A stretch of 44,560 nucleotides of DNA from Candidatus Lindowbacteria bacterium RIFCSPLOWO2_12_FULL_62_27 (GTDB lineage Bacteria > Lindowbacteria > 2-12-FULL-62-27): positions 248,001 to 292,560 of the forward strand of contig MFPR01000001.1 in the NCBI GenBank assembly GCA_001784175.1, read 5' to 3'. The notes beneath the pieces were generated by a model. That model was not told where the DNA came from. It saw only the letters and a program-made list of their open reading frames with translations, and searched no databases. The first letter of the stretch is position 1; each line of letters starts with the position of its first letter. Shown here one piece after another: positions 11,759-41,974 of the stretch. Position numbers and translations under genes: made by a program.

Positions 11759-13306
11759 TCAGGGCGGCAGGGGCGGGCGGCGGGCGTTGACGAGGGCGTC
11801 GTTGATCGTGGAGGTGGCGGCCGAGGTTGACGATTGAAGCTGGTCCGATTGGAGCTGTTCCTGCGAAAGCCGGGCGGGGGGTGCGTCCAGAATGTCCGCG
11901 GACGTTTGCGCAGCCTCCCGCTCCGCCTCGGTCGCTCCGGCCGGCAGGAAATCTCCGAGCGCGGCGTCCCGGAGCAGGTCCAGCGGCCGCCGGACCGCCC
12001 CGAGTACCGACGGCTCAGACACAACCGCTGACATCCCCTCGCCCACCGGCATCGACCGGTCCGCACGGACCGTCTCCGGCCCGCCCGTGTTGAAGGCGGC
12101 TTCCAGGAACGCGCCCAAGTCGGAGGGCTGTTGCGGCGCGAGACCAAAAAAACCCCGCAACGCAGCCGGCAGTTGACCCGGATCCACCGGCGCGACGTAC
12201 CCCGCGCCTTCGTCCGTCCTCACCGCCGCGCCCGGGCCCTTCAGGTACGAAACCTCCTGGACCGTCCCCGTCACGCCGGCCACCGCGGTCGGCATGATCA
12301 CGCGCGCGCGGATTTCCCGGCCGGGCGACTTGGAGGAGACGGTGCGGACGCGGCCGAAGTCGAGGAGAACCTCGACCGAATGTTCGTAGCCCTCCTGAAC
12401 GCACAGGCCGACGGCGAGGTGGGTGAGGGGCGAGATTTCGAAATACACTTTTTCAAATTTCAATACGGCGCGCCCTTCGATCCCCGTGGCGATTTCGTCC
12501 CCGCGTTCGATCTCGATTCTGCCGGCGCCAGCCGCCGTCCAGCGGGTCTCGCCGCTTTTCCGGATCTCCACTTCTCCTGTCACTTCCGTGAGCTCCGCCG
12601 TCATTGGGAACCGCAACATCGACACGGGGCCGGAGCTTCCCGCCCGGAAGGCGCGCAGACGGCGCATGAGCGGCATCCGGGCCGGATGGCGGGATTCGGC
12701 TGCGCCGAATCGCTGTTCCATGCGGGTGAGGAACGCCAGAAGTTCCGGGCCGCTCATCCACTCGTCCGGATGGGTTTCGGGCGGAACGAGTCCGATATTC
12801 GCGGCGACCCGGAAGGCGTATCGCCGGCTGTTCGGAAACCAGCGCCGGAGCCAGCTTCCTTTGTATTCCAATCCCGACAGCATCACGGCCGCCGCCGCGC
12901 CATGCGTCACCGGCCGGCCGGCCTCACGCCAAAGATCCGGATCCAGCGGAACGCCCGCCTCCCTCAGATGCTCGATCTCGTGGTCCGTTCGGTCCGGACC
13001 CGCGTACCGGCGAAACCGGGCGGCGGCCCGAACCACATCGGCGACGGTGGCGGACGGCCTGACGGCCAGCGCCCGATAGAACTCCGTCGCGGCGCGGTCT
13101 TCGGCGTGGGACGCGAACGGCAGACAGAAAATCTGGACAACCCACAAAAACGCTCGGAGTAACCGGGCTGTCCCCCTCTCCCGCCATAGGCGGGAGAGGG
13201 TTGGGGTGAGGGTGGCAGGCTTCGCGCGGCGCCAATCCACCCCCCTCACCTCAATCCTCTCCCCCCTGCGGGGGGAGAGGAGGTGAATAACCACTGCGTG
13301 CTTCAC
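11759..13306 (-). CDS. Exported protein with FecR-like domain
   Basis: VTGEVEI...GDEIATG...AVLKF...PTAVAGVTGT FecR-like segment; signal peptide ending ASHA interrupted by a palindromic repeat; GTGA overlap with the upstream gene. Confidence 0.7.
   Translation of the reverse strand: MKHAVVIHLLSPRRGERIEVRGVDWRRAKPATLTPTLSRLWRERGTARLLRAFLWVVQIFCLPFASHAEDRAATEFYRALAVRPSATVADVVRAAARFRRYAGPDRTDHEIEHLREAGVPLDPDLWREAGRPVTHGAAAAVMLSGLEYKGSWLRRWFPNSRRYAFRVAANIGLVPPETHPDEWMSGPELLAFLTRMEQRFGAAESRHPARMPLMRRLRAFRAGSSGPVSMLRFPMTAELTEVTGEVEIRKSGETRWTAAGAGRIEIERGDEIATGIEGRAVLKFEKVYFEISPLTHLAVGLCVQEGYEHSVEVLLDFGRVRTVSSKSPGREIRARVIMPTAVAGVTGTVQEVSYLKGPGAAVRTDEGAGYVAPVDPGQLPAALRGFFGLAPQQPSDLGAFLEAAFNTGGPETVRADRSMPVGEGMSAVVSEPSVLGAVRRPLDLLRDAALGDFLPAGATEAEREAAQTSADILDAPPARLSQEQLQSDQLQSSTSAATSTINDALVNARRPPLPP
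13172..13289 (-). repeat. REP-like palindromic doublet, in frame in the FecR-gene 5' end
   Basis: Gene-strand sequence TATTCACCTCCTCTCCCCCC-GCA-GGGGGGAGAGG..GGTGAGGG-spacer-CCCTCACCCCAACCCTCTCCCGCC-TAT-GGCGGGAGAGGG. Confidence 0.95.
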
Positions 13307-14850
13307 AAATCCACCGACATTTTAAACCGCAGGAATTCCTCGTGGCTGCGGTTCAGGCCGTAGGCCGGGCCCGGGACGAACATGCCGAGCTGCAGGAGAT
13401 AGCGGAGGTCGGCGAGAGGTTTCCAGGAAAGTTGCGCATCGTATTCGTGGCCGATGTTGTCTCCGAGTCCGCCGGGCGACACGTTGTACACCGGGTCGGA
13501 CGTCGGGCCGGCTTCGTCTTCGGCGAGGAAATAATAGTAGGTCAATTGCAGGGTGCAGTCGTTGAGCGCCATGTGCGAGCTTCGGGCAAACGGCCGGACG
13601 CTGAATCCCGATTTGAAGGCGTGCAGGTTCGCCAGGGCCGGCGCCAGCGCCACGCCGAGATTGAGTCCGCCGAATCCCCGGAACACCGTGTCCCGCCCCG
13701 CCGTCGATCCGCCGCTCGAGGAGAACACGTTGCCGATCCGGTCCCGGTCACCCGACGCGCCGGCAACTTCGGCGAAAATCGAGGGCGCAAGATCCGTGCC
13801 GCCCACAAAAAACTGCATCCCGAGATCGTAGGCCGTCGCGTAGACGCCGATCCGCTGCGTCGTGCCGAGGTGCCCGTAGGTCAGGCCCCGCTCGAGGACA
13901 AACTCGCCCCAGATCGACAGGCGCGAAAGGGGGCTGGCCTCCATCGTGAAGCCGTAGTAGCGCGAGTCGAGCTGGTGGCGCTGGCCGTTCACGGCGAAAT
14001 CGAAGTTATGATCGAGGTTGAACAAGAGGTAGGCCCCGAAGGACTGGCCGCGGCGAATCTGATAGCGCGTTTCGAATCCGTAGAATTGCCGTTTCGTGCG
14101 GCCGGGGCCCGGCGCGAGGAAATCGAGGTTGTCATCGCCGGGATTCTGCCGGAGCGCCATCGCCCGGAGCGACCACCGGCCCCGGTCGGCCTGCCACGAC
14201 AGGCCGTCCGCCGTGAGGCCGAACGCGAGGCCGCGCCCGACCGACACAAAGTGCCGGCCGAGCCGCAGGCGGTGGCGGAAATGCGCGGAGAAGGCGCGTT
14301 CCCAGTAGAGCATTTCGATTTTGGGCTGGATAAAATCGCTGCCGCGGATCGCCGGAGAATTTTTTTTCGTCTCGGTGTATCGCGCGGCCGACCGGAAGTA
14401 GAATTTGCTGGTCCGCGGCGCGTTCTGGACCAATGCGTACACCCGGCCGTCATACACCCACGCGTGGTCTTCCGCGTCGGCCACGGTGTCCTGCCGGTCG
14501 TTGTCGTCCGAGGTCGTATAGGTCGTCGAAATCGTCGAGCCGATGTCGAGGAGCCATCCGCGCCGCCGGCTCGCCCCGAGCCCATCCTCGGTCCGCCGCA
14601 ACTCGTCCACGGATTCGACCCGCTCGCGCCGCCGGTCCTCGCCCGACATCTGGGCGGCCGCCGGGGCGGGCAATAGGCAGAAGACAAGAAGCAACAGGTA
14701 AGCGGGGAACGGTACCCCCCCTCTCCCGCCGTAGGCGGGAGAGGGTCGGGGTGAGGGTGGCAGTCTCCGGTCGTCGTCATCTGCCCCCCTCACCTCAATC
14801 CTCTCCCCCCTTCGGGGGGAGAGGAGGTGAATAGACAGATCAATTCTCAT
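13303..14850 (-). CDS. Outer-membrane beta-barrel, alginate-export-like
   Basis: Alternating beta-strand pattern, LRLGRHF..GRGL, ASGD, NL..FKSG, IGHEYD motifs; ATG 14850 overlaps the M6 stop. Confidence 0.65.
   Translation of the reverse strand: MRIDLSIHLLSPRRGERIEVRGADDDDRRLPPSPRPSPAYGGRGGVPFPAYLLLLVFCLLPAPAAAQMSGEDRRRERVESVDELRRTEDGLGASRRRGWLLDIGSTISTTYTTSDDNDRQDTVADAEDHAWVYDGRVYALVQNAPRTSKFYFRSAARYTETKKNSPAIRGSDFIQPKIEMLYWERAFSAHFRHRLRLGRHFVSVGRGLAFGLTADGLSWQADRGRWSLRAMALRQNPGDDNLDFLAPGPGRTKRQFYGFETRYQIRRGQSFGAYLLFNLDHNFDFAVNGQRHQLDSRYYGFTMEASPLSRLSIWGEFVLERGLTYGHLGTTQRIGVYATAYDLGMQFFVGGTDLAPSIFAEVAGASGDRDRIGNVFSSSGGSTAGRDTVFRGFGGLNLGVALAPALANLHAFKSGFSVRPFARSSHMALNDCTLQLTYYYFLAEDEAGPTSDPVYNVSPGGLGDNIGHEYDAQLSWKPLADLRYLLQLGMFVPGPAYGLNRSHEEFLRFKMSVDL
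14715..14833 (-). repeat. REP-like palindromic doublet, in frame in the barrel-gene 5' end
   Basis: Same two hairpin halves as 13172..13289 with a different spacer. Confidence 0.95.
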
Positions 14851-17359: not shown

Positions 17360-17390
17360 TTGCTTATTGTATATATCGGAAAAAAGCCTC

Positions 17391-17435
17391 AAAAAAACAA
17401 AAAAACCGGAGGCCCGCTTCTTCGCGGACCCCCGG
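17391..17435 (-). terminator. Intrinsic terminator downstream of the Pro-rich repeat gene
   Basis: Minus strand CCGGGGGTCCGC-GAAGAA-GCGGGCCTCCGG followed by TTTTTTTGTTTTTTT. Confidence 0.85.
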
Positions 17436-17467
17436 TCGATGTATCTTGAAGGTACCCTAGTTCAGCC

Positions 17468-20872: not shown

Positions 20873-21058
20873 TCTTCCACCTCCTCAAATGTGATTGTTG
20901 AAGGACATCGAAACCTCGATCGTCCCCTCCCAATCCCCCTTGTTGCCACTCGTATTTTTATCCGCAGTCACGCGGAATATCAATGAATTCGTTGTCAATA
21001 TTGGCACTTCCGGAAAGTAGAGTCTGACACAGAATGCGTGTGTCCAAAGACACAGGCA

Positions 21059-21080
21059 AAATGTGAATAAATTCACTTTT
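21059..21080. promoter_or_regulatory. CRP/FNR-type operator
   Basis: AAATGTGA-ATAAAT-TCACTTTT versus the CRP consensus AAATGTGA-N6-TCACATTT; a Crp/Fnr gene lies in the adjacent operon. Confidence 0.65.
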
Positions 21081-21186
21081 GATTATCCACACATTGTGGA
21101 TTCTGTTGCAACACAAATGTTATCAATTGGTTACAAATCAAGCACGCGCGCCCCGCAACGCCGCCCAGGACACTTGTTGTTTTGTC

Positions 21187-21215
21187 TTGACACATCCCCT
21201 TTAAAATTGGATTAT
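21187..21215 (+). promoter_or_regulatory. Putative sigma70 promoter, possibly giving a leaderless mRNA
   Basis: TTGACA-17 nt-GATTAT ending 8 nt before ATG 21224; no clear Shine-Dalgarno. Confidence 0.45.
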
Positions 21216-21223
21216 ATAGGGTC

Positions 21224-23383: not shown

Positions 23384-23384
23384 G

Positions 23385-24116
23385 ATGCCGCCCCAGAAAA
23401 TCGCGCACCGGTTCGGCCAGAGAAAAACGATGGCGGCCCCGGTTTCCTCCTTTGCGCTCCTCTCCCAGCACCCCATCTTCTCCAAGATCCCGGAAGGGGT
23501 CCGCCGGGAGCTGGTGGCCAGCGGGAGCCTCGTGCGTATACCGCAGTATTCGCTGCTGTTTCACCAGGGCGATGAGGTCACGGCCGCCTATCTCGTCATG
23601 GAGGGCCTCGTCAAAATTTACAGGAACATGGGCGAAGCCGACCGCACACTCGGATTTATCTACAAGTCGGGCATGGTCGGCTTGGACGCGCTCCACGCCA
23701 CGGACGGCCATCCCTACAGCGCCCAGGCGCTGGGCTCGGTCGTCGTCTGCGCCTTTCCCAAGGAGGCGATCCAGTCGATTCTGGCGCGCACGCCCGAGTT
23801 GGGGCCGCTGCTTCTGGCTGAAGTCACGCGCCAGTGGGAGGAGGCGCTGCACGAGCAGGACATCCTGACGCGCCGGAGCACGAACGGCCGGATCGCCGAC
23901 AAGATTTTGCGGCTGGCCGAAAAGTTCGGCCGGGTCGAGGCCGCGGGGACGGTGCTCCTGCTGAAGATCACCCAGCGCGAGCTGGCCTCCATGGCCGGCA
24001 CCAACCGCGAATCGGTCTGCAAGGCGCTCGTGACCTTCAAGCGGGAGGGCTCGATCGACATTCAGAACAAGCTGATCGTGGTCAAGAACAAAACCAAACT
24101 CGCCGCTTGGCCATAA
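23385..24116 (+). CDS. Crp/Fnr family transcriptional regulator
   Basis: LFHQGD, YLVMEGLVKI effector domain; HTH ITQRELASMAGTNRESVCKAL; alternative start ATG 23430. Confidence 0.92.
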   Translation: MPPQKIAHRFGQRKTMAAPVSSFALLSQHPIFSKIPEGVRRELVASGSLVRIPQYSLLFHQGDEVTAAYLVMEGLVKIYRNMGEADRTLGFIYKSGMVGLDALHATDGHPYSAQALGSVVVCAFPKEAIQSILARTPELGPLLLAEVTRQWEEALHEQDILTRRSTNGRIADKILRLAEKFGRVEAAGTVLLLKITQRELASMAGTNRESVCKALVTFKREGSIDIQNKLIVVKNKTKLAAWP

Positions 24117-24141
24117 GCCCGATTCTGCCGATATTATTCAT

Positions 24142-25782
24142 ATGCGGACTGCCTTTTTTCGGACAGCCTGTTTCCTGATCTGTCTGATAACTATTCACCT
24201 CCTCTCCCCCCGCAGGGGGGAGAGGACGAGCGAAGCTCGGGTGAGGGGGGTTGATTGGCGCCGAGCTAAACCGGCCACCCTCACCCCAACCCTCTCCCGC
24301 CTATGGCGGGAGAGGGGAGGGTTCCAAACGCCTCCCGCCCACGCCGAGGGGACGAGGAGACTCTCCATCACCGACGCGCTGAAGCTGGCGCAGGAGCGGA
24401 ACCCCACGTTTTCAAAGGCCAGCCTAACCTACGAATCGTCGCGGCTGACGTACCTCAAGACCCTCCACGGGCTGGGCTGGGTCGAGTCGTTCACGGCGTC
24501 CAGCGACTACAAGCGGGACGAGTCGTTCAGCTATTCGAAATATTTCAACACGACCGGCGAACGCGTCAGCGCGACCCGGAGCCGGACCCTGAGCAACACG
24601 ACGTCCTGGAACCTCAAACGCACGTTCGGGTCGGGCATGGCCACCGACTTTTATTCCAAGCTCACGACCAGCGACGGATCCAGCCGGTACAACGCGTTCA
24701 AGGGCGCGCTCGCGGACGACGCCAGCAGCAGATACAAATACATCACGCAGAAGTTCAATCCCGAAGTCGGCGTGAATCTCACGCTGCCGATCATCGGCAA
24801 GGACAAAAACAGCACCGACTACAGCCGGAAACAGGCGGACGCCTCGTGGGCGCAGGCCGAGATCGATTTTGAGGAGGCCAAAAAAAGCCTCGTGCTGTCC
24901 GTCCGGCAGGGATACTTTGATCTCCTCAAGTACCGGCGGATGGCCGCGCTTCGGAAAGAGGTGCTGGCCGAGGCCGAGGAACGGCTGGAGGTGACCAAGA
25001 AGCGGCTGAGTGTCGGGATGACGACCGAGATGGACGTGTCGCAGGCGGAGCTGACGGTTCTGAGAAACAGGGCGGACCTCGCCGACGCCGTTTTTTCGGA
25101 ACAGCAGGCCCAGAGCCGTTTCAACAGCCTGATCGGCCTGCCGCTGGACGACTACTACGACCTGACCGACGGATTTCCCCCGGAGCCGGTCCGCGAAGTG
25201 ACGATGAAGATGGTGCAAAGCCGTGTGATTTCCGCGAGCGGGGATTTGCGGCGGATGAACAAGGACATCGAAGTTTCGACGATCTCCGTCGAGCAGGCCA
25301 AGTCGAAGATGCGGCCGGCCTTCGCGTTCAAATCGAATCTTGCGCTCGAGGGCGAGCGGCGGGACCTGCCGAGGGTCCTGCGCAATCCCGAGGAGAAATA
25401 TTCCTTCACGCTGACCTACGATTTTCCGTTCGGCGAAAAGGTGACGCAGAAGGCGGACTTGGAGCTGGCTGAGGCGGGCCTGAGCACGAAGGTCCTGGAG
25501 CGGGACGAACTGAATCAGAGCCTGATCCTCGACGCGACCGAGACGTACCAGGAGCTGTTGAAGGTCCAGCGGCGCCTGGCGATCGCGCGGCAGTCGCGGG
25601 AGGTGTCGGAACGGAGTCTTCGGATCGCGCAGGCGAAGTTTGACGAGGGCCGGGGCGAGATCACCGACGTCATCTCCGCCAAAACGTCCCTCGTGAACGC
25701 GCAAGTCGAAGAGCTGAACAACCTCTACAGTCTGGCCGTGGCGACGGCCGAACTCGAGATGCTCACCGGAGAGTCGATCTAG
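24142..25782 (+). CDS. TolC-family outer membrane channel
   Basis: LSITDALKLAQERNP, VRQGYFDL, RLSVGM, KFDEGR OEP motifs; signal peptide split by a repeat. Confidence 0.88.
   Translation: MRTAFFRTACFLICLITIHLLSPRRGERTSEARVRGVDWRRAKPATLTPTLSRLWRERGGFQTPPAHAEGTRRLSITDALKLAQERNPTFSKASLTYESSRLTYLKTLHGLGWVESFTASSDYKRDESFSYSKYFNTTGERVSATRSRTLSNTTSWNLKRTFGSGMATDFYSKLTTSDGSSRYNAFKGALADDASSRYKYITQKFNPEVGVNLTLPIIGKDKNSTDYSRKQADASWAQAEIDFEEAKKSLVLSVRQGYFDLLKYRRMAALRKEVLAEAEERLEVTKKRLSVGMTTEMDVSQAELTVLRNRADLADAVFSEQQAQSRFNSLIGLPLDDYYDLTDGFPPEPVREVTMKMVQSRVISASGDLRRMNKDIEVSTISVEQAKSKMRPAFAFKSNLALEGERRDLPRVLRNPEEKYSFTLTYDFPFGEKVTQKADLELAEAGLSTKVLERDELNQSLILDATETYQELLKVQRRLAIARQSREVSERSLRIAQAKFDEGRGEITDVISAKTSLVNAQVEELNNLYSLAVATAELEMLTGESI
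24192..24317 (+). repeat. REP-like palindromic doublet, in frame inside the TolC signal peptide
   Basis: Near-identical to 13172..13289 but 9 nt longer, carrying a CGAGCGAAGCTCG mini-hairpin. Confidence 0.95.
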
Positions 25783-25783
25783 G

Positions 25784-28189
25784 ATGGCGGCCGACACGCA
25801 GACGGCGAACCTAGATGAGCTGCAGGCCAAGCTCGAGCGGCTGACGCTCCTTTACGAAATCAACCGCGATTTCCACTCCACGCAGGACCTCGCGGAACTC
25901 ATGCCGAAAGTCTTCGAGGACGTCCTCAAGGCGATGAACTGCGAGGGCGGGTCGCTGTGGATGTGGGATGACGATGCGAAGATGATCACCTGCGAAAACG
26001 CGTTCGGGCCGGGCAGCGAAAACGTCAAGGGCTTGAAGCTTCCGAAGGGCACCGGGATTGTGGGCTGGGTGATCAACATGAAGAAGCCGACGATCGTGAA
26101 GGACGCGACGGCCGACAAGCGATTTGCGGGCACGACGGACCAGAAGACGGGCTTTGTCACGAAATCGATGATCTGCGTGCCGCTCCTGACGCAGGCCGGG
26201 GTCCTGGGCGCGATCCAGGTCCTCAACAAGAAGGGCGACACCGGCCAGTTCAACGACGAGGACCTCGAGCTTTGCAAGGTCATGGCCGAAAACGCGGCCG
26301 GCGCCATCGTCAACGCGCGGGCCTACGAGTCGGAAAAGACGGCGCGGGAGCGCATCCAGGTGTTCAACGAGTTCAACAAGGCCCAGAGCACCACGCTCGA
26401 TTTGGACAAGCTGCTCGACATCATCCTCAAGCGCGTCGTCACCATCCTCGACGCCGTCGCCGGCAGCATCTGGCTCCGGCAGGGCGGAGACCTCCTCGCC
26501 AAGGTCGCGGTCGGGCCGACCGCCGGGAAGCTGGTCGGCGCCAAAGTTGGGGTCGGCACGGGGATCGTCGGGAGCGTCGTCCAGAAAAAAGCGCCGGTGA
26601 TCGTGGAAGACACCTCGAAATCGGAATTGTTTTCCGGCAAGGTCGACGATGCCACCGGATTCAAGACCAAGTCCCTCATTACCGTGCCCCTCATCCACCA
26701 GGACGAGGCGATCGGCGCCATCCAGATCATCAACAAGAAAAAGGACGACGACTGGTTCACCAAGGACGACATGGACCTTCTGTCGAGTCTCGCGGGCCTG
26801 TCGACCAGCGCCATCAAGAACGCGACGCTGTACGAGGTCGAGCGCAAGGCGAAGGACCTGTCGATTTTGCTGGACATCTCGAAAGAGGTCTCGTCGAACC
26901 TCGACATGGACAGCGTCCTTGTGACGGTCGTGAACCTCACCAACCAGGTGGTGCCCTACGAGCGGGCGGCGATGTTCGTGAAGAACGAAAACAAATACGA
27001 TTTGCGCGCGGTGTCGGGCGCCGCCAAGATCGACAAGGCCGACCCGGCGATCATGGCGCTCGACAACGCGGCCGACGCGATCGACAAGGACCTGTACATC
27101 GCCGACGCGGAGAAGTATCTGGCGGAGGGCGGGGGGATTGCGGCGGTCAAGGACTATCTGAAACAGGCCGGCATCGCGTCGTTTTACGCGCGGGTCCTGG
27201 CCGACGACCAGGGACCGCTGGGCATGATGACGATGGAGAGCAAGAACAAGGATTTCGTCCAGCCAGCGCAGATGGAGATGCTGACGATCCTGGCCAACCA
27301 GATCACCGTGTCGATCCGCAACGCCGAGCTGTACAAATCGGTCCCGATGTTTTCGGGCTTTGGCAAGGGCGCGACCCTCAAGAAGGTGCTGGTGGGCGGC
27401 GCGATCGCGCTGGGGGTTCTGGCGGGGCTCGGGGCGCTTTTGTGGTTTCCGAAAGTCGAGCACCGGCTCGGCGGGCAGGTCGACATCGAGCCGATCGTGC
27501 GCAACAAAATTTACGCGAAGGAAAGCGGGATTCTTGACAAGGTCCACTTCCGGGAGGGCGACACCATCAAGGTCGGAGACCTTTTTGCCGAACTTTCCCA
27601 ACAGGACATGGAGCAGGAGAAACTGAAGATCCAGACGAAACGCGAGATCGCCCGCCAGTCGTATCTGCGGTCGGTGGGCCTGTCGAACATGGCGGAGGCA
27701 CGGATGAAGGAGGCCGAGATCGCGCAGGCCGACCGCGAGATGTCGAACCTGTCGAACAAGATGGAGAACACGCGGATCATCTCGCCGCACGAGGGCCAGG
27801 TCCTGACGGCCGACCTGCCGCAGAAGGTCGGGGAAAACATCAGCCGGGGCGCGGTCGTCGGCGATGTCGTCGATCTGTCGAAACTTCAGGTCAAGTTCGG
27901 CGTGCCGCAGGAGCAGATCCGGTACGTCGCGGCGGGGCAGGAGATCCGGTTCAAGGTCTCCTCCTACCCGACGCGGACCTACACGGTCAAGATCGAGCGC
28001 ATCGGCATGGAAGGCTCGACCCAGGAGGACAAGACGATCTACAACGTCTACGCGACCATTGAGAACGCCGACCGGACGCTCAAGGCGGGCATGTCGGGCC
28101 GCGGGAAGATTCTGGCGGGCAAACAGCGCCCGTTCCAACTCCTGATGGAGGAACCGGTCCATTGGATGCGGATGAACTGGCAGTGGTGA
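25784..28189 (+). CDS. Triple-GAF-domain membrane fusion protein (HlyD-like)
   Basis: GAF repeats (GIVGWV...TKSMICVPL...IQVLNK..F..ED), TM VLVGGAIALGVLAGLGALLWF, then MFP (IISPHEG, LKAGMSG). Confidence 0.88.
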   Translation: MAADTQTANLDELQAKLERLTLLYEINRDFHSTQDLAELMPKVFEDVLKAMNCEGGSLWMWDDDAKMITCENAFGPGSENVKGLKLPKGTGIVGWVINMKKPTIVKDATADKRFAGTTDQKTGFVTKSMICVPLLTQAGVLGAIQVLNKKGDTGQFNDEDLELCKVMAENAAGAIVNARAYESEKTARERIQVFNEFNKAQSTTLDLDKLLDIILKRVVTILDAVAGSIWLRQGGDLLAKVAVGPTAGKLVGAKVGVGTGIVGSVVQKKAPVIVEDTSKSELFSGKVDDATGFKTKSLITVPLIHQDEAIGAIQIINKKKDDDWFTKDDMDLLSSLAGLSTSAIKNATLYEVERKAKDLSILLDISKEVSSNLDMDSVLVTVVNLTNQVVPYERAAMFVKNENKYDLRAVSGAAKIDKADPAIMALDNAADAIDKDLYIADAEKYLAEGGGIAAVKDYLKQAGIASFYARVLADDQGPLGMMTMESKNKDFVQPAQMEMLTILANQITVSIRNAELYKSVPMFSGFGKGATLKKVLVGGAIALGVLAGLGALLWFPKVEHRLGGQVDIEPIVRNKIYAKESGILDKVHFREGDTIKVGDLFAELSQQDMEQEKLKIQTKREIARQSYLRSVGLSNMAEARMKEAEIAQADREMSNLSNKMENTRIISPHEGQVLTADLPQKVGENISRGAVVGDVVDLSKLQVKFGVPQEQIRYVAAGQEIRFKVSSYPTRTYTVKIERIGMEGSTQEDKTIYNVYATIENADRTLKAGMSGRGKILAGKQRPFQLLMEEPVHWMRMNWQW

Positions 28190-29181
28190 CCAACTACCTG
28201 CCACCCTCACCCCGACCCTCTCCCGCCGGAGGCGGGAGAGGGGGGAGAGCCGGCGTGTTTCGCACGGTCGTGCCCGGACTCTTGTTCGCTGCCCTTTACC
28301 CATCATTACCCGTTACCCGGTGCCAGGCGGAGGTCTACACGAACGGTCTGACGATGATCTACCGGGAGGTTTCGGTGAGCCCGAGGTCCTCGGGCGTGAT
28401 CGAGAAGCTCTACGTGCAGGAGGGCCAGTGGGTGTCGGAAGGCGACGCGCTGGGGGAATTGGACGCGACGAAGGAAAAAATGGATTTGCTGTTGACGGAC
28501 ATGGAGCTTGAGGAGCTGCAGCTTTCTCTGGAAAAAATGAAGCTGCCCCTGCGGCCGAAAGAGATCGAGAAAATGGAGATTGACCTGAAAAAGACCCAGC
28601 TCGCCGAGGACAAGACCAAAACGGAGCTTGAGCGCACCAAGCGCCTGTATGATCAGAAGGCGGTATCGGACAAGGATGTCGCGGACGCCAAAAACGCGGC
28701 CGAGGCCGCCGCGCTCGCCACCAAGGCGCAGAAACTCTCGCTGGAACTCGCCAAGGAGGGGCCCCGCAAGGAGGAGATCATGCTTCACGAAATGAAAATC
28801 GCGCAGAAACTCCACGCGCAGGACCAGAAAAAGCTCGCGCTCGAAAAAATGACCGTCCTCTCCTCCGCCGCCGGCGTGATCTCGAAACTCTACTACGCCG
28901 CCGGCGAAAACGCGGCCGCCGGCCAGCCCTTCTGCGACGTCCTCAACACCGACTCGCTCTACGTCGAACTCAATCTGCCCGTGTCGGAGATCAACCGGAT
29001 CACGGTCGACCAAAAGGCGACCGTGACGGTTCCGTCGGTCACCTCAAAATCCCATCCGGGCCGCGTCGTGTTCATCAGCCCCACCGTCGATCCGGCCAGC
29101 CGGACGTTCAAAATCCGCATCGAAATCGCCAACCCGCAGCGCGCCCTCAAACCGGGGCTCTTCGCCACCGTTTCGATTTAG
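28186..29181 (+). CDS. HlyD/RND-type periplasmic adaptor (MFP)
   Basis: VSPRSSGVIEKLYVQEG, coiled coil, VFISPTVDPASRTF, LKPGLFA; start GTG 28186 (GTGA overlap) or GTG 28255. Confidence 0.88.
   Translation: MTNYLPPSPRPSPAGGGRGGRAGVFRTVVPGLLFAALYPSLPVTRCQAEVYTNGLTMIYREVSVSPRSSGVIEKLYVQEGQWVSEGDALGELDATKEKMDLLLTDMELEELQLSLEKMKLPLRPKEIEKMEIDLKKTQLAEDKTKTELERTKRLYDQKAVSDKDVADAKNAAEAAALATKAQKLSLELAKEGPRKEEIMLHEMKIAQKLHAQDQKKLALEKMTVLSSAAGVISKLYYAAGENAAAGQPFCDVLNTDSLYVELNLPVSEINRITVDQKATVTVPSVTSKSHPGRVVFISPTVDPASRTFKIRIEIANPQRALKPGLFATVSI
28200..28244 (+). repeat. Single REP-like palindrome at the MFP 5' end
   Basis: CCACCCTCACCCCGACCCTCTCCCGCC-GGA-GGCGGGAGAGGG. Confidence 0.9.
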
Positions 29182-29192
29182 ACCTCCTGAGA

Positions 29193-29273
29193 ATCCCTGT
29201 TGCCGGTTCGGAGAGATTCACCATCCATGGCGAATCCGGAGCCGGAGGCAACAGGGATAGTCCATCCATGGAC
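29193..29273. repeat. Compound palindrome between convergent genes
   Basis: ATCCCTGTTGCC...GGCAACAGGGAT outer stem enclosing a CCATCCATGG-centred hairpin, followed by GTCCATCCATGGAC. Confidence 0.6.
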
Positions 29274-29303
29274 AAAAACAGGGGGACGCTTGGAGCGTCC
29301 CCC
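29274..29303 (-). terminator. Intrinsic terminator of the amt-glnK-porin operon
   Basis: Perfect 10-bp stem GGGGGACGCT/AGCGTCCCCC followed by TGTTTTT on the minus strand. Confidence 0.8.
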
Positions 29304-29352
29304 CTTGGTTCTCGATTCTGAACCTTACCGGTAAAAGGGCGAAACTACCTGC

Positions 29353-30594
29353 TTAAAAATTCACCCCGAGCGAGAGGGTCAGCGCGTCGGCGTCCTGAGA
29401 AGCCCGGTCGTTCGTATTCGCGGCGAGCTGGTTGCCGAACCCGTCCCCGTCTTCATCAAACGTCGTCCACTCCGCCTTGACCATGGCGCTGTCCGCGAGC
29501 TTGTAGCCGGCCGCGACGCTCCAGAGGCTGGGCTCGCCCAGTGTATTGGAATTCACGTAATCGGGATCGAGCTGGTTCCACCGGACTGCGAGATACGAAT
29601 TCTCGTCGAAGGTGTAACGGCCCTGCAGTCCCATGTAATTCCATTCACGGCTTGCGCCGGTCGTGCCCGTGTCCGCGTCGATGTTGCCCCAAAAGCCGAT
29701 GAGATATCCGTCCCCGTAGTCGTACTTCGCGGACACTTCCCACATCTGCCGGTCGTAGCCGTTCATGAAGACCAGACCCTGGAGGTTGGAGTTGACCCCC
29801 GCGCCAAGCGTGGAGTTGACATTCTGAACGAGGAACGAGCTTCCAACGTTCAGGGGATCCTGATCGCCGTCCTTCGTCTGGTCGCTGTTGTAGAAACTGG
29901 CCTGGACCGTCAGGTTGTCCTGAACCTGCGTTTCGACCCGCAAGGCCCATGCCAGATCGTCGTTCGACCTCACCTGATTGCCTGTTCCCGCCGGATTTCC
30001 GTCGACCACGCCGCCGCCGTTCATGAGGGCGATCTCCCACGTCGACGGGGTTTTGATGTGTCCCTCAAAGGACCCGGACAGCGAGATGCCGTTTTCCGTG
30101 CCGTTGATGTCCAGCAGGCCATTGGTGATGAACTCGTTGTTGCGGTCATCGCCATGGTTGGTCCGCTTCGCGTACTCCCAGCCGTACGGAATGTCAATCA
30201 GGCCGGGTTTGAGGTTGAGCCCGCTGCCGAGAAAATCCTTGATGACGATGCACGCGTTGAGAAGCTCGAGAGATTCGGCGATGCCGGGGTTGTTGCCGGT
30301 CACCGGGGTGCCGCCGTCCGCCACCGTTCGGGTATTCTCGTGGCTGTAGTCATTGCCGGCCCAGATGCCAAGCGCGATGGAAATCTTGTCGGAGATGTCG
30401 GCGTTGACATACAGATTGATCCGCGGGTCGTTGAAATTCAAATCCTCATCGACGCCGCCCGTCGTCGAGTCGAAATCGATGTCCTGCACGCTTACGAGCG
30501 CCGCTCCCGACAGTTCGATTTTCGCGTCCGAACCCTGCGGGAACGCGAAAAGGAGCGCCGCAAAAAGTGCGGCCGTCCACAGATTCTGCTTCAC
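29353..30594 (-). CDS. Porin-like outer-membrane beta-barrel
   Basis: Signal peptide from GTG 30594 with RBS, GLIDIPYG motif, amphipathic strands, terminal LSLGVNF (C-terminal Phe). Confidence 0.75.
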   Translation of the reverse strand: MKQNLWTAALFAALLFAFPQGSDAKIELSGAALVSVQDIDFDSTTGGVDEDLNFNDPRINLYVNADISDKISIALGIWAGNDYSHENTRTVADGGTPVTGNNPGIAESLELLNACIVIKDFLGSGLNLKPGLIDIPYGWEYAKRTNHGDDRNNEFITNGLLDINGTENGISLSGSFEGHIKTPSTWEIALMNGGGVVDGNPAGTGNQVRSNDDLAWALRVETQVQDNLTVQASFYNSDQTKDGDQDPLNVGSSFLVQNVNSTLGAGVNSNLQGLVFMNGYDRQMWEVSAKYDYGDGYLIGFWGNIDADTGTTGASREWNYMGLQGRYTFDENSYLAVRWNQLDPDYVNSNTLGEPSLWSVAAGYKLADSAMVKAEWTTFDEDGDGFGNQLAANTNDRASQDADALTLSLGVNF

Positions 30595-30635
30595 TGAAAT
30601 CAGTCCCCCTTTGCCTTTGTGATGTGGGTCGCGAA

Positions 30636-30977
30636 CTAACCGATCGCGACGTTCCCTGTCTCGCTGGTCCTGATCCGAATGCACTCCGGCAGGTCCAGCA
30701 CGAAAATCTTGCCGTCGCCGATGTTGCCCGTCCTCGCGCCCTTGATGATCGCATCGACCGTCGGCTTGACGAAATTCTCGTTCACCGCGATCTCGAGCTG
30801 AACCTTGTTCAGCAGGTTCACCTCCTCGATCGCGCCGCGGTACGTTTCCGAAAACCCCTTCTGCTGGCCGCAGCCGACGACCGGCATGACCGTCATTTTG
30901 AAGACCTCGGCCTCATAGAGCGCCTTTTTCACGTCCGGCAGTTTCTCCGGCTGGATAATCGCAATGATCAATTTCAT
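30636..30977 (-). CDS. glnK: P-II nitrogen regulatory protein
   Basis: [22 protein letters not shown]-loop, [18 protein letters not shown]; linked to amt. Confidence 0.93.
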
Positions 30978-31007
30978 CGTCGTTTCTCCCTTCTCAGGCG
31001 CGCCGGC

Positions 31008-32447
31008 CTATTTGGTGACGAAAATGTTGAAGCCCGCGTAGGCTTCCATGCCGTGTTCGCCGATGTCGAGGCCTCGAAGCTCCTCGTCCCGGCCGACCCG
31101 GATACCGCCGACGGCTTTGAGAAGGCCAAACCCGGCCAGCGCCACGATGAAGGTGAACGCGCCGACCCCGACGACGCCGATGAGCTGCGTCATCAACTGG
31201 TCCGTCCCGCCGCCGTACAATAAACCCACTTTCGGCTGCGCGGCGCCTCCCGCGAAGGGGGCGCTTGCAAACAGCCCCACGCACAGGGTGCCCCAGACGC
31301 CGTTCACGAGATGCACGGCCAGCGCTCCGACCGGATCGTCGATGTGAAGCTTGTCGAAGAGGATGACACCGAAAACCACGAGGACGCCCGCGACGGCGCC
31401 GATGAGCACCGATGCGCCGACGCTCACGAACGCGCACGGCGCCGTGATCGCCACCAGCCCCGCCAAACATCCGTTCAGAATCATCGACAGGTCCGGCTTG
31501 CCGAGCAGGACCCACGCCGTGAGCATCGCCGTCACGACGCCGGCGGCGGCGGCGGAATTGGTCGTGATGCAGATTCGCGCCATGGACTCGGGGTCGGCCG
31601 CCATGGTGGAACCGGGATTGAATCCGAACCAGCCCAGCCACAGGATAAACGTGCCGAGCGTTGCGGCGAGCATGTTGTGTCCCATGATGGGATTCACGGA
31701 GCCGTCAGGCCGGAACTTGCCGATCCGCGGCCCCAGGAGCATCGCGCCGGCCAGCGCCGCCCAGCCGCCGACCGAGTGGACCACCGTGGATCCCGCGAAA
31801 TCAAAAAATCCCTTCTGGGCCAGCCAGCCGCCGCCCCAGATCCAGTGGCCGGTGATCGGATACATGACGCCGACGAGGAGAAACGAGAAAAGGACAAACA
31901 CGTGAAACTTGATCCGCCCGCCGACGGCGCCCGATACGATGGTGGCCGCCGTGCCGGCGAAAACCAGTTGGAAGAAAAATTTCGCCCAAATCGGAACACC
32001 GGTCCAGTTCATCGAGGAATAGACGCCCTGGTAGGCGGCGCCGGTGGCGGGGCTGTTGTCCGCGCCGCCGACCATCCAGAGACCCTGCAACCCGGAGAAT
32101 CCGTTGCCGTCTCCGAACATGATTCCCCAGCCGACGAACCAGAACGCCAGGGACGAAATGGCGAACACGACGAAATTCTTGGCGCAGATGTTCACGCAGT
32201 TTTTCGCCTGCTGAAGCCCCGCCTCCAGCATGCCGAAGCCCGCGTTCATCCAGAAGACCAGCATGGCCGTCACCAGGACCCAGAGGGTGTCGGCCATGAC
32301 CTTGCCGTTCGCAATCGCCGCGGCGTGTTCCTGCGTAAATGCGGGCGACGACGCCGCCGCGTCTTCCGCGGCCACCGCGCCCGCGCCCGCCAGCGTCACC
32401 AAGCCGGCCAGGAGCAGTGTCCCCATCCAATTCACCCTGTTGTTCAT
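31008..32447 (-). CDS. amtB: Ammonium transporter
   Basis: [42 protein letters not shown] (both conserved His). Confidence 0.97.
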
Positions 32448-32506
32448 CCGCTGTTCACCTGCTTTCGAATATTATTCCGGCGCTTGGCCGTTTGTCATGG
32501 ACGCGG

Positions 32507-32535
32507 ACGGTACCAACCCGTTTTTCATTTGTCAA
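32507..32535 (-). promoter_or_regulatory. Putative sigma70 promoter of the amt operon
   Basis: TTGACA-17 nt-TACCGT with a TG extended -10 on the minus strand. Confidence 0.55.
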
Positions 32536-32646
32536 GATTATTTCAAAAAAAATTTTCAAACGTTTAGATTATTGTCAGCCAACTGAATAGATGCATCGAA
32601 AGCATGGGGCGGCACGGCCATTTGGCGGACGGCGCCGGAGACGCCG

Positions 32647-33606
32647 TCAGCTCCGCCAGTCACCCTTTTTCCGGAACGTCCATTTGAGTTTTGAACGCAG
32701 GCCCAGGAGGGCGTTGATCCAGGAGCCCGGGAGGGGCCAGAGGGCGAGGAGGGACCAGGAACGGAGGTTGGCCGGGTCGTGGCGGAGGCTGTCGAGGAGG
32801 TTGCCGAGGGCCGGAAGTTTTTTGCCGAGGAGCAGCTCGTAGTAGGCGGCCCATTGCAGGAAATATCCCAAACGCTTGGGTGCGCGCTTGAGGACGTGGC
32901 GATAGCGTTCGGCGAGGTAGGTGTTGTACTCGTCCGTCATGGCCCAGAGCCTGCGGCCGCCGCTCAAGACCGTCACGTTGTCGGTGCCGCTCCAGCCGGC
33001 GACGCCCAGCGGCCGGCGGAAAATCCGGAGCTTGCCGTCGGGCAGGAGCGCCTCCCAGAGGCCGGTGAACCAGTTGAAGGGGTGCTGGTAGAATTGGAAA
33101 AAGTTATCCCAGAATACGCGTTTCCCGATGAAGAGCACGTCGGCGAAGCCTTTCGTGCCGAGCAGGAAATCCTCAAACGTCAGCGCGAGCCGGTCGTTCT
33201 GCCAGCCGGTGAAATAGTCGATCGGCGCATGGGTCCGCTCGTCGATCCAGAGGTATCCGTGGATGAACTCGTCGTCGGGCGACGAGGTGAGGTTGCGGGC
33301 GATGATGTCGAGCGCGTCGGTCGAGAGGAACCGGTCATCGCTGTCGAGCCGCAGGAGGTAATCGCCCGAACACTCCCGGAAATGCTGCGGATACCGGACG
33401 GCGTGGGTCTCGCTGGAGTTAAACCGGATATAGCGCAGGCGCGGGTCCTTGAAGGATTCCATGAGTTCGGGCGTCGCATCGGTCGAGCCGTCGTCGATGA
33501 CCCAGTACTCGAAGTTCGCGTGTGTCTGCGCCAGCACGCTGTCGATCGTCTGCTTGAGGCGATAGGCGCGGTTGTAGGTGGCGGTGAGGATGCTGAATTT
33601 TTTCAT
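32647..33606 (-). CDS. Family 2 glycosyltransferase
   Basis: FSILTATYNR, SVLAQT, VIDDGSTD, LDSDD. Confidence 0.92.
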   Translation of the reverse strand: MKKFSILTATYNRAYRLKQTIDSVLAQTHANFEYWVIDDGSTDATPELMESFKDPRLRYIRFNSSETHAVRYPQHFRECSGDYLLRLDSDDRFLSTDALDIIARNLTSSPDDEFIHGYLWIDERTHAPIDYFTGWQNDRLALTFEDFLLGTKGFADVLFIGKRVFWDNFFQFYQHPFNWFTGLWEALLPDGKLRIFRRPLGVAGWSGTDNVTVLSGGRRLWAMTDEYNTYLAERYRHVLKRAPKRLGYFLQWAAYYELLLGKKLPALGNLLDSLRHDPANLRSWSLLALWPLPGSWINALLGLRSKLKWTFRKKGDWRS

Positions 33607-33998
33607 GGATTTTTCACCCCCTCTCCCTCTTTAGAGGGAGAGGGTCGGGGTGAGGGTGTTCTCTCAATCCGGTCAATTATTCGTCCGAGGACTACATCCA
33701 TCTTGTTCAATACATCATTGTCCCAGAACCTCAGGACGTGAAAGCCCTCCTGCAATAGAAAGGCCGTCCGCTCGCAATCCTTCTGGAGGTTGACATCTTC
33801 GGCATGTTGGCCGCCATCCACTTCGATGACCAATCCCCGCTCCACACAACAGAAATCGGCGATGAACCTGCCGATGGGATGTTGCCTCCTGAATTTATAT
33901 CCTTCGAACCGGCGCGACCGAAGATGCTTCCAAAGTTTCCGTTCGGCGTCGGTCATTTCTTTGCGCAACCTTCGCGCAAATGCGATGTTCTTCTTCAT
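33603..33998 (-). CDS. DUF559 (Vsr-like PD-(D/E)xK) endonuclease-domain protein
   Basis: ARRLRKEMTDAERKLW..LR, KFRRQHPIG.FIADF, LVIEVDGGQH, VLRFWDNDV. Confidence 0.93.
   Translation of the reverse strand: MKKNIAFARRLRKEMTDAERKLWKHLRSRRFEGYKFRRQHPIGRFIADFCCVERGLVIEVDGGQHAEDVNLQKDCERTAFLLQEGFHVLRFWDNDVLNKMDVVLGRIIDRIERTPSPRPSPSKEGEGVKNP
33617..33656 (-). repeat. REP-like palindrome forming the 3' end of the DUF559 gene
   Basis: Minus strand CCCTCACCCCGACCCTCTCCCTCT-AA-AGAGGGAGAGGGG; encodes PSPRPSPSKEGEG. Confidence 0.92.
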
Positions 33999-34001
33999 GC
34001 T

Positions 34002-34044
34002 CCCCTCACCCCAACCCTCTCCCCTCTTCGAGGGAAGAGGGGGG
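34002..34044 (+). repeat. REP-like palindrome upstream of DUF559, inverted relative to the 33617 copy
   Basis: CCCCTCACCCCAACCCTCTCCCCTCTTCGAGGGAAGAGGGGG. Confidence 0.92.
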
Positions 34045-34776
34045 AATGTTCAATCCGCCCCCCATACGCTGGGCCATGCTTATAGAAAACATGATTATAC
34101 AGAGACAAAGGACAATCCCTATAGGGGTGAATTCTTCGAGGCGCGAATGCGAATTCGAAAATGTGGGAACTTTAAAATCACCGAAAATTAACCCTTCAAG
34201 ATACGCCCTGAAATATGTGAATAGAACAATCAACAAATATGTGAATGGAATACTCAACGATTCAAGCATCGAGCTTTTAATCGTAGATAATTGACGAATA
34301 CTTCTTACAATCCCAACTACAAATAAAGTCAGGATAAATCCATAGGTCCCTAGAATCTTTTCGGTGAGCCATACAGTGCCCCCAGATAAATCGAACGGGA
34401 TGTTTTTGAGTGTAAAAAAAACGATACATCCCAATGCAGGATACATCAGATAGCGGCGCTTCCTCTGTAGTGGTATTTTACATGTGATTATTTCTATAAA
34501 ACCCAACGTGGCACCCCAAGAGCAACCCAATAAAGCAGCAATAATACACACGGGAAATATGTATTTTGTACATTTTAACGCAAAATCCAATATGTCACCT
34601 GCCAGAAGCAATTTACTATACACTACTACGACGCAAACAAACGCCCCAAACCAACCTCCTAAAAACCCACCCCATATTCCACTTACGATTGGATTGAATA
34701 AAAATCCGTGTCGAACCGCTTTAGACTTTGTCGTTGGCGGAGGCACACTCTCTTTCGCAGAATTTGATTCCATCAT
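34006..34776 (-). CDS. Hypothetical polytopic membrane protein, AT-rich
   Basis: 256-aa ORF with several hydrophobic segments; visibly more AT-rich than its flanks; stop codon lies in the repeat. Confidence 0.6.
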   Translation of the reverse strand: MMESNSAKESVPPPTTKSKAVRHGFLFNPIVSGIWGGFLGGWFGAFVCVVVVYSKLLLAGDILDFALKCTKYIFPVCIIAALLGCSWGATLGFIEIITCKIPLQRKRRYLMYPALGCIVFFTLKNIPFDLSGGTVWLTEKILGTYGFILTLFVVGIVRSIRQLSTIKSSMLESLSIPFTYLLIVLFTYFRAYLEGLIFGDFKVPTFSNSHSRLEEFTPIGIVLCLCIIMFSISMAQRMGGGLNIPPSSLEEGRGLG

Positions 34777-34819
34777 AGAATCCGTTCAACTTTAATATAC
34801 ATATTAGAAGTCAAAAGAA

Positions 34820-34859
34820 CCCCCTCACCCTGACCCTCTCCCCCTGCGGGGGAGAGGGG
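34820..34859 (+). repeat. REP-like palindrome downstream of glyS
   Basis: CCCCCTCACCCTGACCCTCTCCCCC-TGC-GGGGGAGAGGGG. Confidence 0.92.
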
Positions 34860-34934
34860 ATCATCCAATCTTCTTCCGATTCTTCGTCCCAACATGACGC
34901 TATCATGCTGAAGCCTTCGCCTAAGCCGCGCATG

Positions 34935-37002
34935 TCACTCCGATACGGCGATCCTGTCGAATTCGGCGTAGGACCGGAAGGCGTCGCTGATGGCGCCAAT
35001 GAGGGACAGGCGGTTGGCCCGGAGCGACGCGTCGTCAACCATGACGAACACTTTATCGAAGAACGTGTGGAGCGGCGCCGCCATCTCCAGGATGGCGCGG
35101 AGCCGGTCGGTGTACTTGCGTTCGGGCATCCTCCGGACGGCGGCCTCCCAGTCCAGAAAGGCCTTGTGGAGCGCACGCTCCTCCTCCTGCTGGAATGCGC
35201 CGGGGTTGAGCGGCGGGAGATTTTTTTCGTTTTTGACGATGTTGTGCGCGCGTTTGGCGGTGCGAAGCAGCGTCACCCAGCGGTCCTTGCCTTCGCGCGC
35301 TATTTTCGAGAACGCCTCGACCTTGCCCGCGATCTCACACGGGTCGTCCGACACGTTGAGGCACGCCAAGACGAACTCGGCCGGATGGGTTTCGCGCAGG
35401 AGCGCTTCGAGCCGGGCGCGGAAAAACGCGAGCACCTCCGGGGCGGCCTTGCGGACGGCGCCGGGGTCCGGGAAAATCGGGGCGGCGCTTTCGGCCATCT
35501 GGCCGATGCGCAGGTGCCAGGCGCGCGCGAGGAGGATCCGGGCGATGCCGATGGCCGCGCGGCGCAGGCCGTAGGGATCGCCGGACGCGGTAGGCCGAAG
35601 GCCGACCGAGTAGGCGCCGAAGAGCAGTTCGAATTTATCGGCCAGAGCAAGGAGCGCGCCGAGCGGCGTTTCCGGCAGAGGGTCGGCCGGTCCGCGAGGC
35701 TGGTAGTGTTCGGCGATCGCAGCGGGAATTTCCGCCGGCAGGCCCTCCTTTTCGGCGTAGATGCGGCCCATGACGCCCTGAAGTTCCGGGAATTCCCGGA
35801 CCACCTCCGTGAGCAGGTCCGCCTTGCAGAGATAGGCCACATCGGCGTACCGGTCGAGATCGAGGTCGATGCCGATGCGCGGCGGCAGAATCACGAGGAG
35901 GTCCCGGAGGCGCCGCGCGCGGTCGTGCAACGTCCCGAGACCCTCGAGGTAGACCACGCCCTTGAGGCCGTCGATCCGGTCGGCCAGTTTCTTTTTGCGG
36001 TCGGTTTCAAAAAAATATTTCGTATCCGAAAACCGCGCCGTCAGCACCCGCGCGTTGCCCTTCGCGACGATGCCCTTCGGGTCCGGCGGCCCGTTGCGGA
36101 CGACCAGAAAATGCGGCGCGAGTTTCCCGCCGGCGGCCGTCACCGGGAAATACCGCTGATGGTGGCTCATGGCGCTTTTGAGAATCACGGCGGGAATGTC
36201 CAGAAAGGACCGGTCGAACCCGCCCAGAAGGACGGTCGGGAATTCCGTCAGATGAACCACCTCGGTCACCAGGTCCTCCGGCAGGTCCGCCGAAAGGCCG
36301 CGCCGCGCCAGAATCATTTTCGCGCCCCGCAGGATTTTTTCCCGGCGTTTCGCCGGCGAGACCATGACCATTTTTTGTTCGAGCTTGCGGAAATACCCGG
36401 CGGCGGACGCCGGGCGGAACGGTTGCGGATGAAAAAACTTGTTGCCGAACGTCACCGCGCCCGACTCCAACCCGTGGGCCGCGAACCGGAGCGGGCGGCC
36501 GTGCAGGAGGCACAGGATCCAGCGGACGGGCCGGGCGAAGGCGGCCGCGTCGCCGGCGCGCCAGCGCATGGCTTTGGGGAAGGAGATCGACGCGATCAGC
36601 GCGGGTAGAATCTCCGGCAGGATCTTCGCCGTGGGACGGCCTTTTTCCTTGAGCCGGACGCCGACGAAGGCGCGGTCCTTTTTCTGAACCTTCACGATGC
36701 TGTTCGCGTCGCCGCCCACCGATTTCAGGAATCCCTCGAGCGCGGCCGTGGGCCGGCCGTCGGCGCCGTAGGCCGCGTCCCACGGCGGTCCCGTCCGCTC
36801 CACCACGCGCGTGTCGGCGGCCCGGCCGATGTCGCGGGCCCAGACGACGAGCCGGCAGGGCGTGGCGTACGCATGGACGGCAGCCACCGGGATGCGGTGT
36901 TCGGCGAGGATGCGCCGAAGACCCGTCTCAAGCTGTTCGGTCGCGGGCGGGAGGAATCGCGCGGGAATTTCTTCGCACCCGATCTCGAGCAGAAAATCGC
37001 GG

Positions 37003-38271: not shown

Positions 38272-38309
38272 CCCCCCCACCCAGCCTCCCCCACAAGGGG
38301 GGAGGGGGG
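38272..38309 (+). repeat. Variant REP-like palindrome
   Basis: CCCCCCCACCCAGCCTCCCCC-ACAA-GGGGGGAGGGGGG in the divergent cutA/DUF47 intergenic region. Confidence 0.75.
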
Positions 38310-41940: not shown

Positions 41941-41974
41941 CCCCCACCCATCCTCCCCCATAAAGGGGGAGGGG
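41941..41974 (+). repeat. Variant REP-like palindrome after aguB
   Basis: CCCCCACCCATCCTCCCCC-ATAAA-GGGGGAGGGG. Confidence 0.75.

Follow-up and report, generated by a model that had tools for sequence, protein, structure and literature searches.

A putative DUF559 nuclease gene between inverted BoxC units: a likely partner enzyme for a dispersed triplex-type repeat

The cassette and its repeat

In the genome of Candidatus Lindowbacteria bacterium RIFCSPLOWO2_12_FULL_62_27 a small putative nuclease gene is framed by two inverted copies of a dispersed hairpin repeat, which raises the question whether the encoded enzyme is the partner of that repeat. The window, i.e. the whole stretch of DNA analysed here, comprises 44,560 nt. 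The DUF559/YcjD-type gene (33603..33998, minus strand, 131 aa) matches PF04480 above its cut-off with 134.6 bits (E 1.6e-39) and gave no PF01797 match. Its upstream unit (34003..34041, minus strand) consists of a hairpin, a 3-nt spacer and a G-rich tail toward the ATG and carries an SD-like GAGG, ending 5 nt before this start codon. The downstream unit (33619..33656, plus strand) lies within the coding 3' end of the gene and has a folding z-score of -4.3, obtained with a tool that scores duplex structure only. The two arms are inverted with their G-rich tails pointing at the gene, and the order hairpin-tail, DUF559, tail-hairpin described in a first-pass annotation of this DNA is indeed present. 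The same holds for the downstream repeat as protein-coding sequence: the C-terminal tail of the protein is the translated unit, TPSPRPSPSKEGEGVKNP, and the stop codon overlaps the start of a family 2 glycosyltransferase gene (32647..33606, minus strand). An arm lies within the coding tail of DUF559 in 28 of 42 loci, and the distance from the tail end to the first in-frame start codon ranges from -3 to 112 nt with a median of 13 (43 DUF559 loci).

The upstream unit also encodes the end of an AT-rich ORF of 256 codons (34006..34776, minus strand, GC 0.42), which yielded no Pfam or NCBIfam match and is possibly a passenger. This ORF is bounded on one side by the upstream arm and on the other by a single BoxC unit that follows glyS (34822..34858, minus strand) and is in direct orientation relative to that arm. 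The outer unit and the cassette downstream arm could bound a composite element with both ORFs (34006-34858).

Six residues of the protein (E19, D48, E59, D61, H65 and D74) are invariant in an alignment of 16 sequences. A single-sequence structure model (pLDDT 58) was replaced by one with pLDDT 84, which matches 3HRL, an uncharacterised Neisseria protein, the catalytic domain of I-Bth0305I (3R3P) and Vsr (1VSR). Glu, Asp, His and Asp residues make up the Vsr/EDxHD site according to passages of PMC3239194, and the residues of DUF559 were assigned to this site by motif order, not by superposition. The score against PRK09767 (113.8) is below the equivalog cut-off of 218, and no separate DNA-binding or transposase domain was found in the 131 aa. 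The window protein is best described as a single-domain, Vsr-fold putative nuclease with an active site that looks intact. It resembles the EDxHD homing endonuclease I-Bth0305I and Vsr in fold and putative catalytic residues (passages of PMC3239194). Unlike I-Bth0305I, it is without an N-terminal NUMOD DNA-binding domain and no intron or intein was seen, and unlike the setting of Vsr there is no methyltransferase beside the gene in the window.

In total 12 repeat units were identified at nine loci in the window, so that the earlier count of nine loci in 44 kb holds. Doublets lie near 13175, 14720 and 24204, single units near 28204, 33617, 34004, 34820, 38274 and 41941. Two arm types make up the doublets, A with a GCC-extended stem and B, a T-A-A variant. 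The tails-inward A+B doublet at 13159..13294 (units 13174-13212 and 13243-13281) and the A+B doublet at 14706..14838 (units 14719-14757 and 14787-14825) each have decayed IS66-type ends with 6 mismatches over both ends. The third (24187..24316) has the order B+A, an extra small hairpin in the spacer of the B arm and an IS66-type end at 24187. All remaining single units are on the minus strand: an A-type unit at 28204..28242, a unit at 38274..38305 whose variant type is the one beside the genome's second DUF559 gene, and a similar variant at 41941..41972. Chance does not explain such numbers, as the motif pattern has 132 copies in the genome of the window (G000, a 94% complete assembly; G001-G003 are relatives) against 0, 1 and 0 in three order-5 Markov genomes. 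A sequence-blind detector gave 172 units in G000, belonging to several variant families, with 35 tails-inward doublets.

The first-pass annotation regarded the doublets as the cassette minus its gene. Their tails-inward orientation is the same, but the cassette arms are variants other than the A and B arms of the window doublets. Of the six best matches to the downstream arm one is near-identical (C2:1302, score 36/38), and none of those to the upstream arm is (top score 31/39). A literal cassette minus gene exists for the second DUF559 cassette of G000, described below.

The palindromes had also been called REP-like, a loose label, since the repeat fits the published BoxC/TM consensus, CCCTCNCCC-loop-GGGNGAGGG-N3-GGGNGAGGG (passages of PMC4666352). 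With longer loops allowed, most copies in the genome agree with it, as does the downstream arm, and the upstream arm differs by one stem change. With the loop widened, the published pattern yields 23 copies in K-12, the same number as in passages of PMC4666352. By its sequence the repeat is the known BoxC/PIT/triplex motif and not a REP. According to the same passages, BoxC, also named PIT or TM(ECO), is a purine-motif intrastrand triplex repeat of E. coli and >260 genomes, described since the 1990s, with neither function nor enzyme known; triplex formation by the E. coli motif was shown in vitro with oligonucleotides and not seen in vivo, the motif halts polymerase in vitro and is a marker of unstable loci, and around its copies in E. 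coli no transposase remnants were seen (Holder et al. 2015, PMC4666352). These passages name no enzyme and mention neither ycjD nor a nuclease. Our units share with the BoxC of Holder et al. the consensus, the hairpin, the 3-nt loop and the G-rich third strand, and likewise doublets that pair two different arm types and a patchy copy number among relatives; unlike there, a nuclease gene lies between units and some doublets have IS66-type ends (passages of PMC4666352).

Stem and tail covary in the way expected of a triplex, with a third strand that mirrors the purine arm (G-G, A-A/T). At the varying positions outside the anchor, the stem/stem/tail combinations were C-G-G in 87 cases, T-A-A in 33 and T-G-G in 1, and at a second position T-A-A in 8, C-G-G in 6 and T-G-G in 1, these counts being copies of a few lineages rather than independent events. 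A permutation test of the third strand (47/56 perfect vs 15.8) is biased by how units were selected, as are the mirror-versus-direct counts, and we therefore relied on the anchored covariation table. Beside DUF559 genes of other phyla, too, mirrored tails accompany further variants of the stem, and a physical triplex is predicted here. A third triplex-type family in G000 comprises about 34 units with a AAGGGGGG arm (e.g. C4:85201, C41:47667-48481); no DUF559 partner for it was found in the 94% complete assembly, which speaks against a strict link between repeat and gene. The gene framed there by two direct copies of this family is presumably a Uma2-type nuclease.

Association of the repeat with DUF559 genes

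Two full-length DUF559 genes and one weak match in a long frame were found in G000, and both full-length genes are bracketed, each by its own repeat variant. This genome has three tails-inward neighbour pairs 80-1600 bases apart, two of which enclose the full DUF559 genes. The second cassette (C6:217766-218191) has its own arm variants with about 14 dispersed copies; the left arm is identical to 6 of them among the matches listed, and the right arm is one base off three. Both arms recur in the gene-less doublet C43:187577-187651, separated by a 5-base spacer. This cassette offers the best natural pair for a comparison of specificity.

Enrichment of the repeat beside DUF559 genes, as expected from the first-pass annotation, was found in two sets of loci. 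The first set consists of 38 full-length loci (18 + 20, including the two from G000; five further strong matches came without locus), with an inward unit upstream in 28, downstream in 28 and on either side in 34, as against 5/620 control strand-windows and 0/10 weak or fused DUF559 matches. In the second set, from one gammaproteobacterial order, the figures are 18/30 upstream, 19/30 downstream and 25/30 on either side (controls 10/354). Altogether at least one inward-facing unit is present at 59 of 68 DUF559 loci and in 15 of 974 control windows, an association that is favoured because pattern and detector were fixed after DUF559 flanks, including flanks from the tested order, had been viewed. 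The repeat class does not significantly track the DUF559 protein tree (65/500 shuffles reach the value).

In 151 genomes of one gammaproteobacterial order DUF559 was detected (E up to 1e-15) in 44. At least 10 repeats were found in 25 of these 44 genomes, but in only 1 of the 107 negative ones (Fisher p 1e-15). Sorted by Y1 domain (PF01797, which mixes RAYT and IS200), the same threshold was reached by 21/112 genomes with and 5/39 without a match (p 0.47); five repeat-rich genomes thus have no Y1 match. On a recA tree, i.e. a single marker gene, 143 genomes were compared, leaving out 2 without recA match, 3 with partial genes and 3 with failed orientation. Out of 20 independent pairs for DUF559, 9.2 pointed the same way as the repeats and 0.1 the opposite way (median p 0.004); for Y1 it was 1.5 and 2.2 out of 23 (p 1). 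Across genomes of this order the repeats thus follow DUF559 and not Y1, also on the tree. The fit is incomplete in both directions: 13 of the 44 DUF559-positive genomes have fewer than five pattern matches (7 of them none), and genome G152, with its 85 repeats, gave no match to DUF559. A gene that spreads repeats and repeats that select for the gene are equally compatible with this correlation.

The first-pass annotation had also asked whether the same repeats flank RAYT or IS200-like genes. None of the 8 Y1-domain genes in G000 has a pattern match within 1.5 kb. Y1 genes of this genome (e.g. C41:78434, C24:14266, C44:3871) carry inverted repeats of their own that have no relation to BoxC and precede short tandem repeats.

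Mobility of the cassette and IS66-type ends on doublets

Presence and absence of DUF559 need 29 state changes on the recA tree, and about 22 neighbourhoods were counted among 30 DUF559 loci. At three orthologous sites (in G167, G091 and G147) the cassette is absent with no repeat remnant, gain and loss being unpolarised. The window site itself gave no readable junction in the comparison of empty sites proposed earlier: the glycosyltransferase on the downstream side is without an orthologue in G001-G003, where glyS is followed by different genes, and contigs from 4 of 11 sequencing runs over 16301-36200 showed no joint across the cassette among the matches listed, which are dominated by other organisms. 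An MnmA-like tRNA methyltransferase gene carries one cassette as an in-frame fusion, and a Type ISP restriction-modification gene contains another (L023, L024). A doublet of G001 is absent from the corresponding site of G000. In addition, a tails-outward pair of 90 bases lies in frame in one gene of G000 (C2:1302-1390) and of G003 and is absent from four paralogous copies. One of its arms is nearly identical to the downstream arm of the window cassette, and the order resembles the junction of joined cassette ends.

No excess of target duplications was found at cassettes (exact 8-mers in 2/34; shuffles 0.6, max 3) or at single units (7/90; shuffles 3.2, max 8). With no transposase domain and no such excess, the cassette does not look like a DDE insertion sequence. 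A search of a phage collection gave no close DUF559 at E 1e-15; DUF559 was present in 18 plasmid records, mostly megabase replicons, and neither set pointed to a carrier.

For doublets the picture is different. An exact 8-mer is repeated 8-24 bases outside the stems in 7 of 35 doublets (shuffles 0.11, max 2), and these duplications lie outside terminal inverted repeats GTAACTRTTCA. Among 14 candidates in the genome bounded by GTAACT-type ends, 5 have an 8-bp duplication with at most one mismatch (shuffles 0.36, max 3). The window doublets 13159-13294 and 14706-14838 belong to these candidates, with decayed ends and no target duplication left. GTAACT ends also bound a 1613-bp element in a viral contig that carries an IS66 transposase and an exact 8-bp duplication; the search yielding this element gave paired ends with duplication at 3/119 loci. 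In metagenomes 36 of 119 loci with a GTAACT-type end near the hairpin motif have a duplication, with varied interiors. The ends resemble those of ISDge4 from the ISBst12 group of the IS66 family (passages of PMC12898284). IS66-type ends and 8-bp target duplications on some doublets point to a DDE transposase that moved them, and part of the doublet population has, judging by its ends, spread as IS66-type MITEs; the decayed window doublets probably did so as well. GTAACT-type ends and 8-bp duplications are shared with ISBst12-group MITEs by a subset of the doublets only (passages of PMC12898284). Unlike such MITEs, the DUF559 cassette has neither these ends nor a duplication, and a motif search of 68 loci found no IS66-type ends at DUF559 cassettes. 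Target duplications around BoxC doublets are hence no evidence for DUF559-driven transposition. An IS66 transposase (PF03050) was found neither in G000 (94% complete) nor in G001-G003. A different terminal inverted repeat, CTTTCAATTACCCACA, bounds a 146-base element present in two copies (C4:369196-369341 and C6:21050-21195), with a BoxC doublet inside and different 9-bp duplications. At C30:54619 of G000 an IS66-type end abuts a hairpin resembling the NTS motif in passages of the Ssn paper (PMC11893778), from which such ends may capture several repeat kinds.

How enzyme and repeat may be linked

We regard DUF559 as the likely partner enzyme of the BoxC repeat. The earlier proposal that DUF559 rather than an HUH/RAYT enzyme serves the repeat gained from the flank enrichment, the lack of repeats at Y1 genes and the correlation. 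The cassette as autonomous maker of the doublets fared less well, given that the arms differ, that some doublets have IS66-type ends with 8-bp duplications and that cassettes have none. By analogy with SsnA we give a probability of roughly 0.6 to the reading that DUF559 binds and nicks the folded single strand, and that repair at this site spreads both repeats and cassette. The locus would then be a small selfish cassette of repeat, nuclease and repeat. On the G-rich strand the purine arm of the hairpin is mirrored by the tail 3 nt away, which would allow an intrastrand purine triplex; DUF559 would recognise the folded single-strand structure and nick at or beside the repeat, like SsnA at its own flanking hairpin. 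Repair or recombination at the nicks would leave single units, doublets and now and then a whole cassette, with no target duplication. As units would spread through DUF559, genomes gaining the gene are proposed to accumulate its repeat. In a second layer, seen in the sequence itself, some doublets came to lie between ends of the ISBst12 group of IS66, and a DDE transposase then spread them as MITEs and left 8-bp duplications. A hydrolytic nuclease cannot itself carry out strand transfer.

RAYT genes are flanked by their REP/REPIN repeats, which occur genome-wide as singles and as inverted doublets with variable spacers. The DUF559 system is alike in all these respects, but it has no HUH/Y1 domain and its repeats are not linked to Y1 genes. 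The gene of SsnA, a GIY-YIG nuclease (cd10448), likewise lies between NTS hairpins, and the enzyme cuts the single-stranded DNA of its flanking repeat in a site-specific manner (Chenal et al. 2025, passages of PMC11893778). Ssn/NTS resembles the cassette in the small single-domain nuclease gene between inverted hairpins with an oriented tail, in the many dispersed copies of the flanking repeat and in the wide, patchy distribution, and is unlike it in fold (GIY-YIG instead of Vsr/EDxHD) and in the repeat, here a triplex-type mirror motif; nuclease activity has been shown for SsnA, while DUF559 is a putative nuclease on the strength of conserved residues (passages of PMC11893778). DUF559, Vsr and BoxC are not mentioned in these passages. 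The cassette works like Ssn/NTS and RAYT/REP, yet its enzyme belongs to neither. More tentatively, and with the odds leaning against it, DUF559/YcjD proteins may be cross-phylum nucleases of about 120 aa that read a triple helix of single-stranded DNA, each tuned to its flanking motif, with nicks that drive the birth and spread of BoxC and of the cassette. If true, this would be a third enzyme-repeat partnership beside RAYT/REP and Ssn/NTS, with the triplex as selected recognition signal. An enzyme in need of the third strand would mean selection on a DNA triplex as recognition structure, and compact structure-specific single-strand nucleases.

Of the other explanations, a caretaker role is unlikely. 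DUF559 would then be a nuclease of DNA repair that recognises the repeat and clears or resolves triplexes blocking replication, with repeats spreading by other means and repeat-rich genomes keeping the gene because they need it. The fold of Vsr belongs to DNA repair, polymerase stalls at the motif in vitro, the motif is a marker of unstable loci (passages of PMC4666352), and the genome correlation is explained equally well; what a caretaker leaves unexplained is the fixed inward bracketing in many phyla, with the arm so often in the coding tail, and the many insertion sites of the gene, and repeat-bearing E. coli strains and G152 manage without the gene at the places searched. We think it quite unlikely that IS66-type and other DDE transposases spread the repeats as MITE cargo and that DUF559 uses them as ribosome-binding site and terminator without acting on them. 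The direct repeats outside 7/35 doublets, the IS66-type ends of the commonest doublets, the 5/14 candidates with duplication, the same ends on the 1613-bp IS66 element, their likeness to ISDge4 (passages of PMC12898284) and the 36/119 metagenome loci all fit such cargo. However, single units (7/90) and cassettes (2/34) have no duplication excess, IS66-type MITEs enclose many interiors of other kinds, G000-G003 gave no match to an IS66 transposase, and the genome-level link to DUF559 is left unexplained.

In a homing model the enzyme would cut at doublets or single units already present, and recombination via repeat homology would copy the cassette into them, which makes doublets the targets instead of the products. 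I-Bth0305I, a homing endonuclease, is the closest characterised structural match, cassettes have no target duplication, and a gene-less doublet with both C6 cassette arms exists; we nevertheless hold homing to be very unlikely, because the three empty orthologous sites (gain vs loss not polarised) have no repeat remnant, DUF559 with its 131 aa is without the N-terminal DNA-binding domain of I-Bth0305I, and tens of doublets are unfilled in a genome with two gene copies. The idea of REPs maintained by a RAYT or an IS200-like Y1 transposase, with an incidental DUF559 link, is largely refuted and scarcely credible: G000 does have 8 Y1-domain genes and the doublet layout is REPIN-like, but no pattern match lies within 1.5 kb of these genes, the flanks examined hold other inverted repeats, repeats show no correlation with Y1 and a Y1 match is missing from five genomes rich in repeats.

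Both the repeat and the protein family have been described before. No report of a DUF559-BoxC link was found in the literature searched, which excludes most subscription journals, and passages of PMC3184786, PMC2267715 and PMC1189080 contain no enzyme link to the repeat. The present analysis contributes a correlation paired on a tree and controlled by Y1, and it explains the target duplications around doublets by IS66.

With DUF559 as partner of the repeat, BoxC would have a small, easily expressed candidate enzyme with a member in E. coli K-12, ycjD. What speaks against a strict link in E. coli is that BoxC motifs, of which two strains carrying ycjD have 23 and 16, still number 16 and 11 in two strains that have the eef operon instead, ycjD being absent there as judged at the usual locus only. 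In addition, K-12 ycjD has no intact upstream arm. A sapF-ycjD-fabI query was covered by 3343 of 5426 E. coli genomes. The two opened beyond these have the eefRABCD operon at the ycjD site (passages of PMC12817139), which is a replacement rather than a clean empty site for ycjD. In strain ECO_2_R the BoxC in the 3' end of ycjD is complete, and in K-12 its tail has lost 12 bases by deletion (L001:4200-4830 and L034, sapF-fabI).
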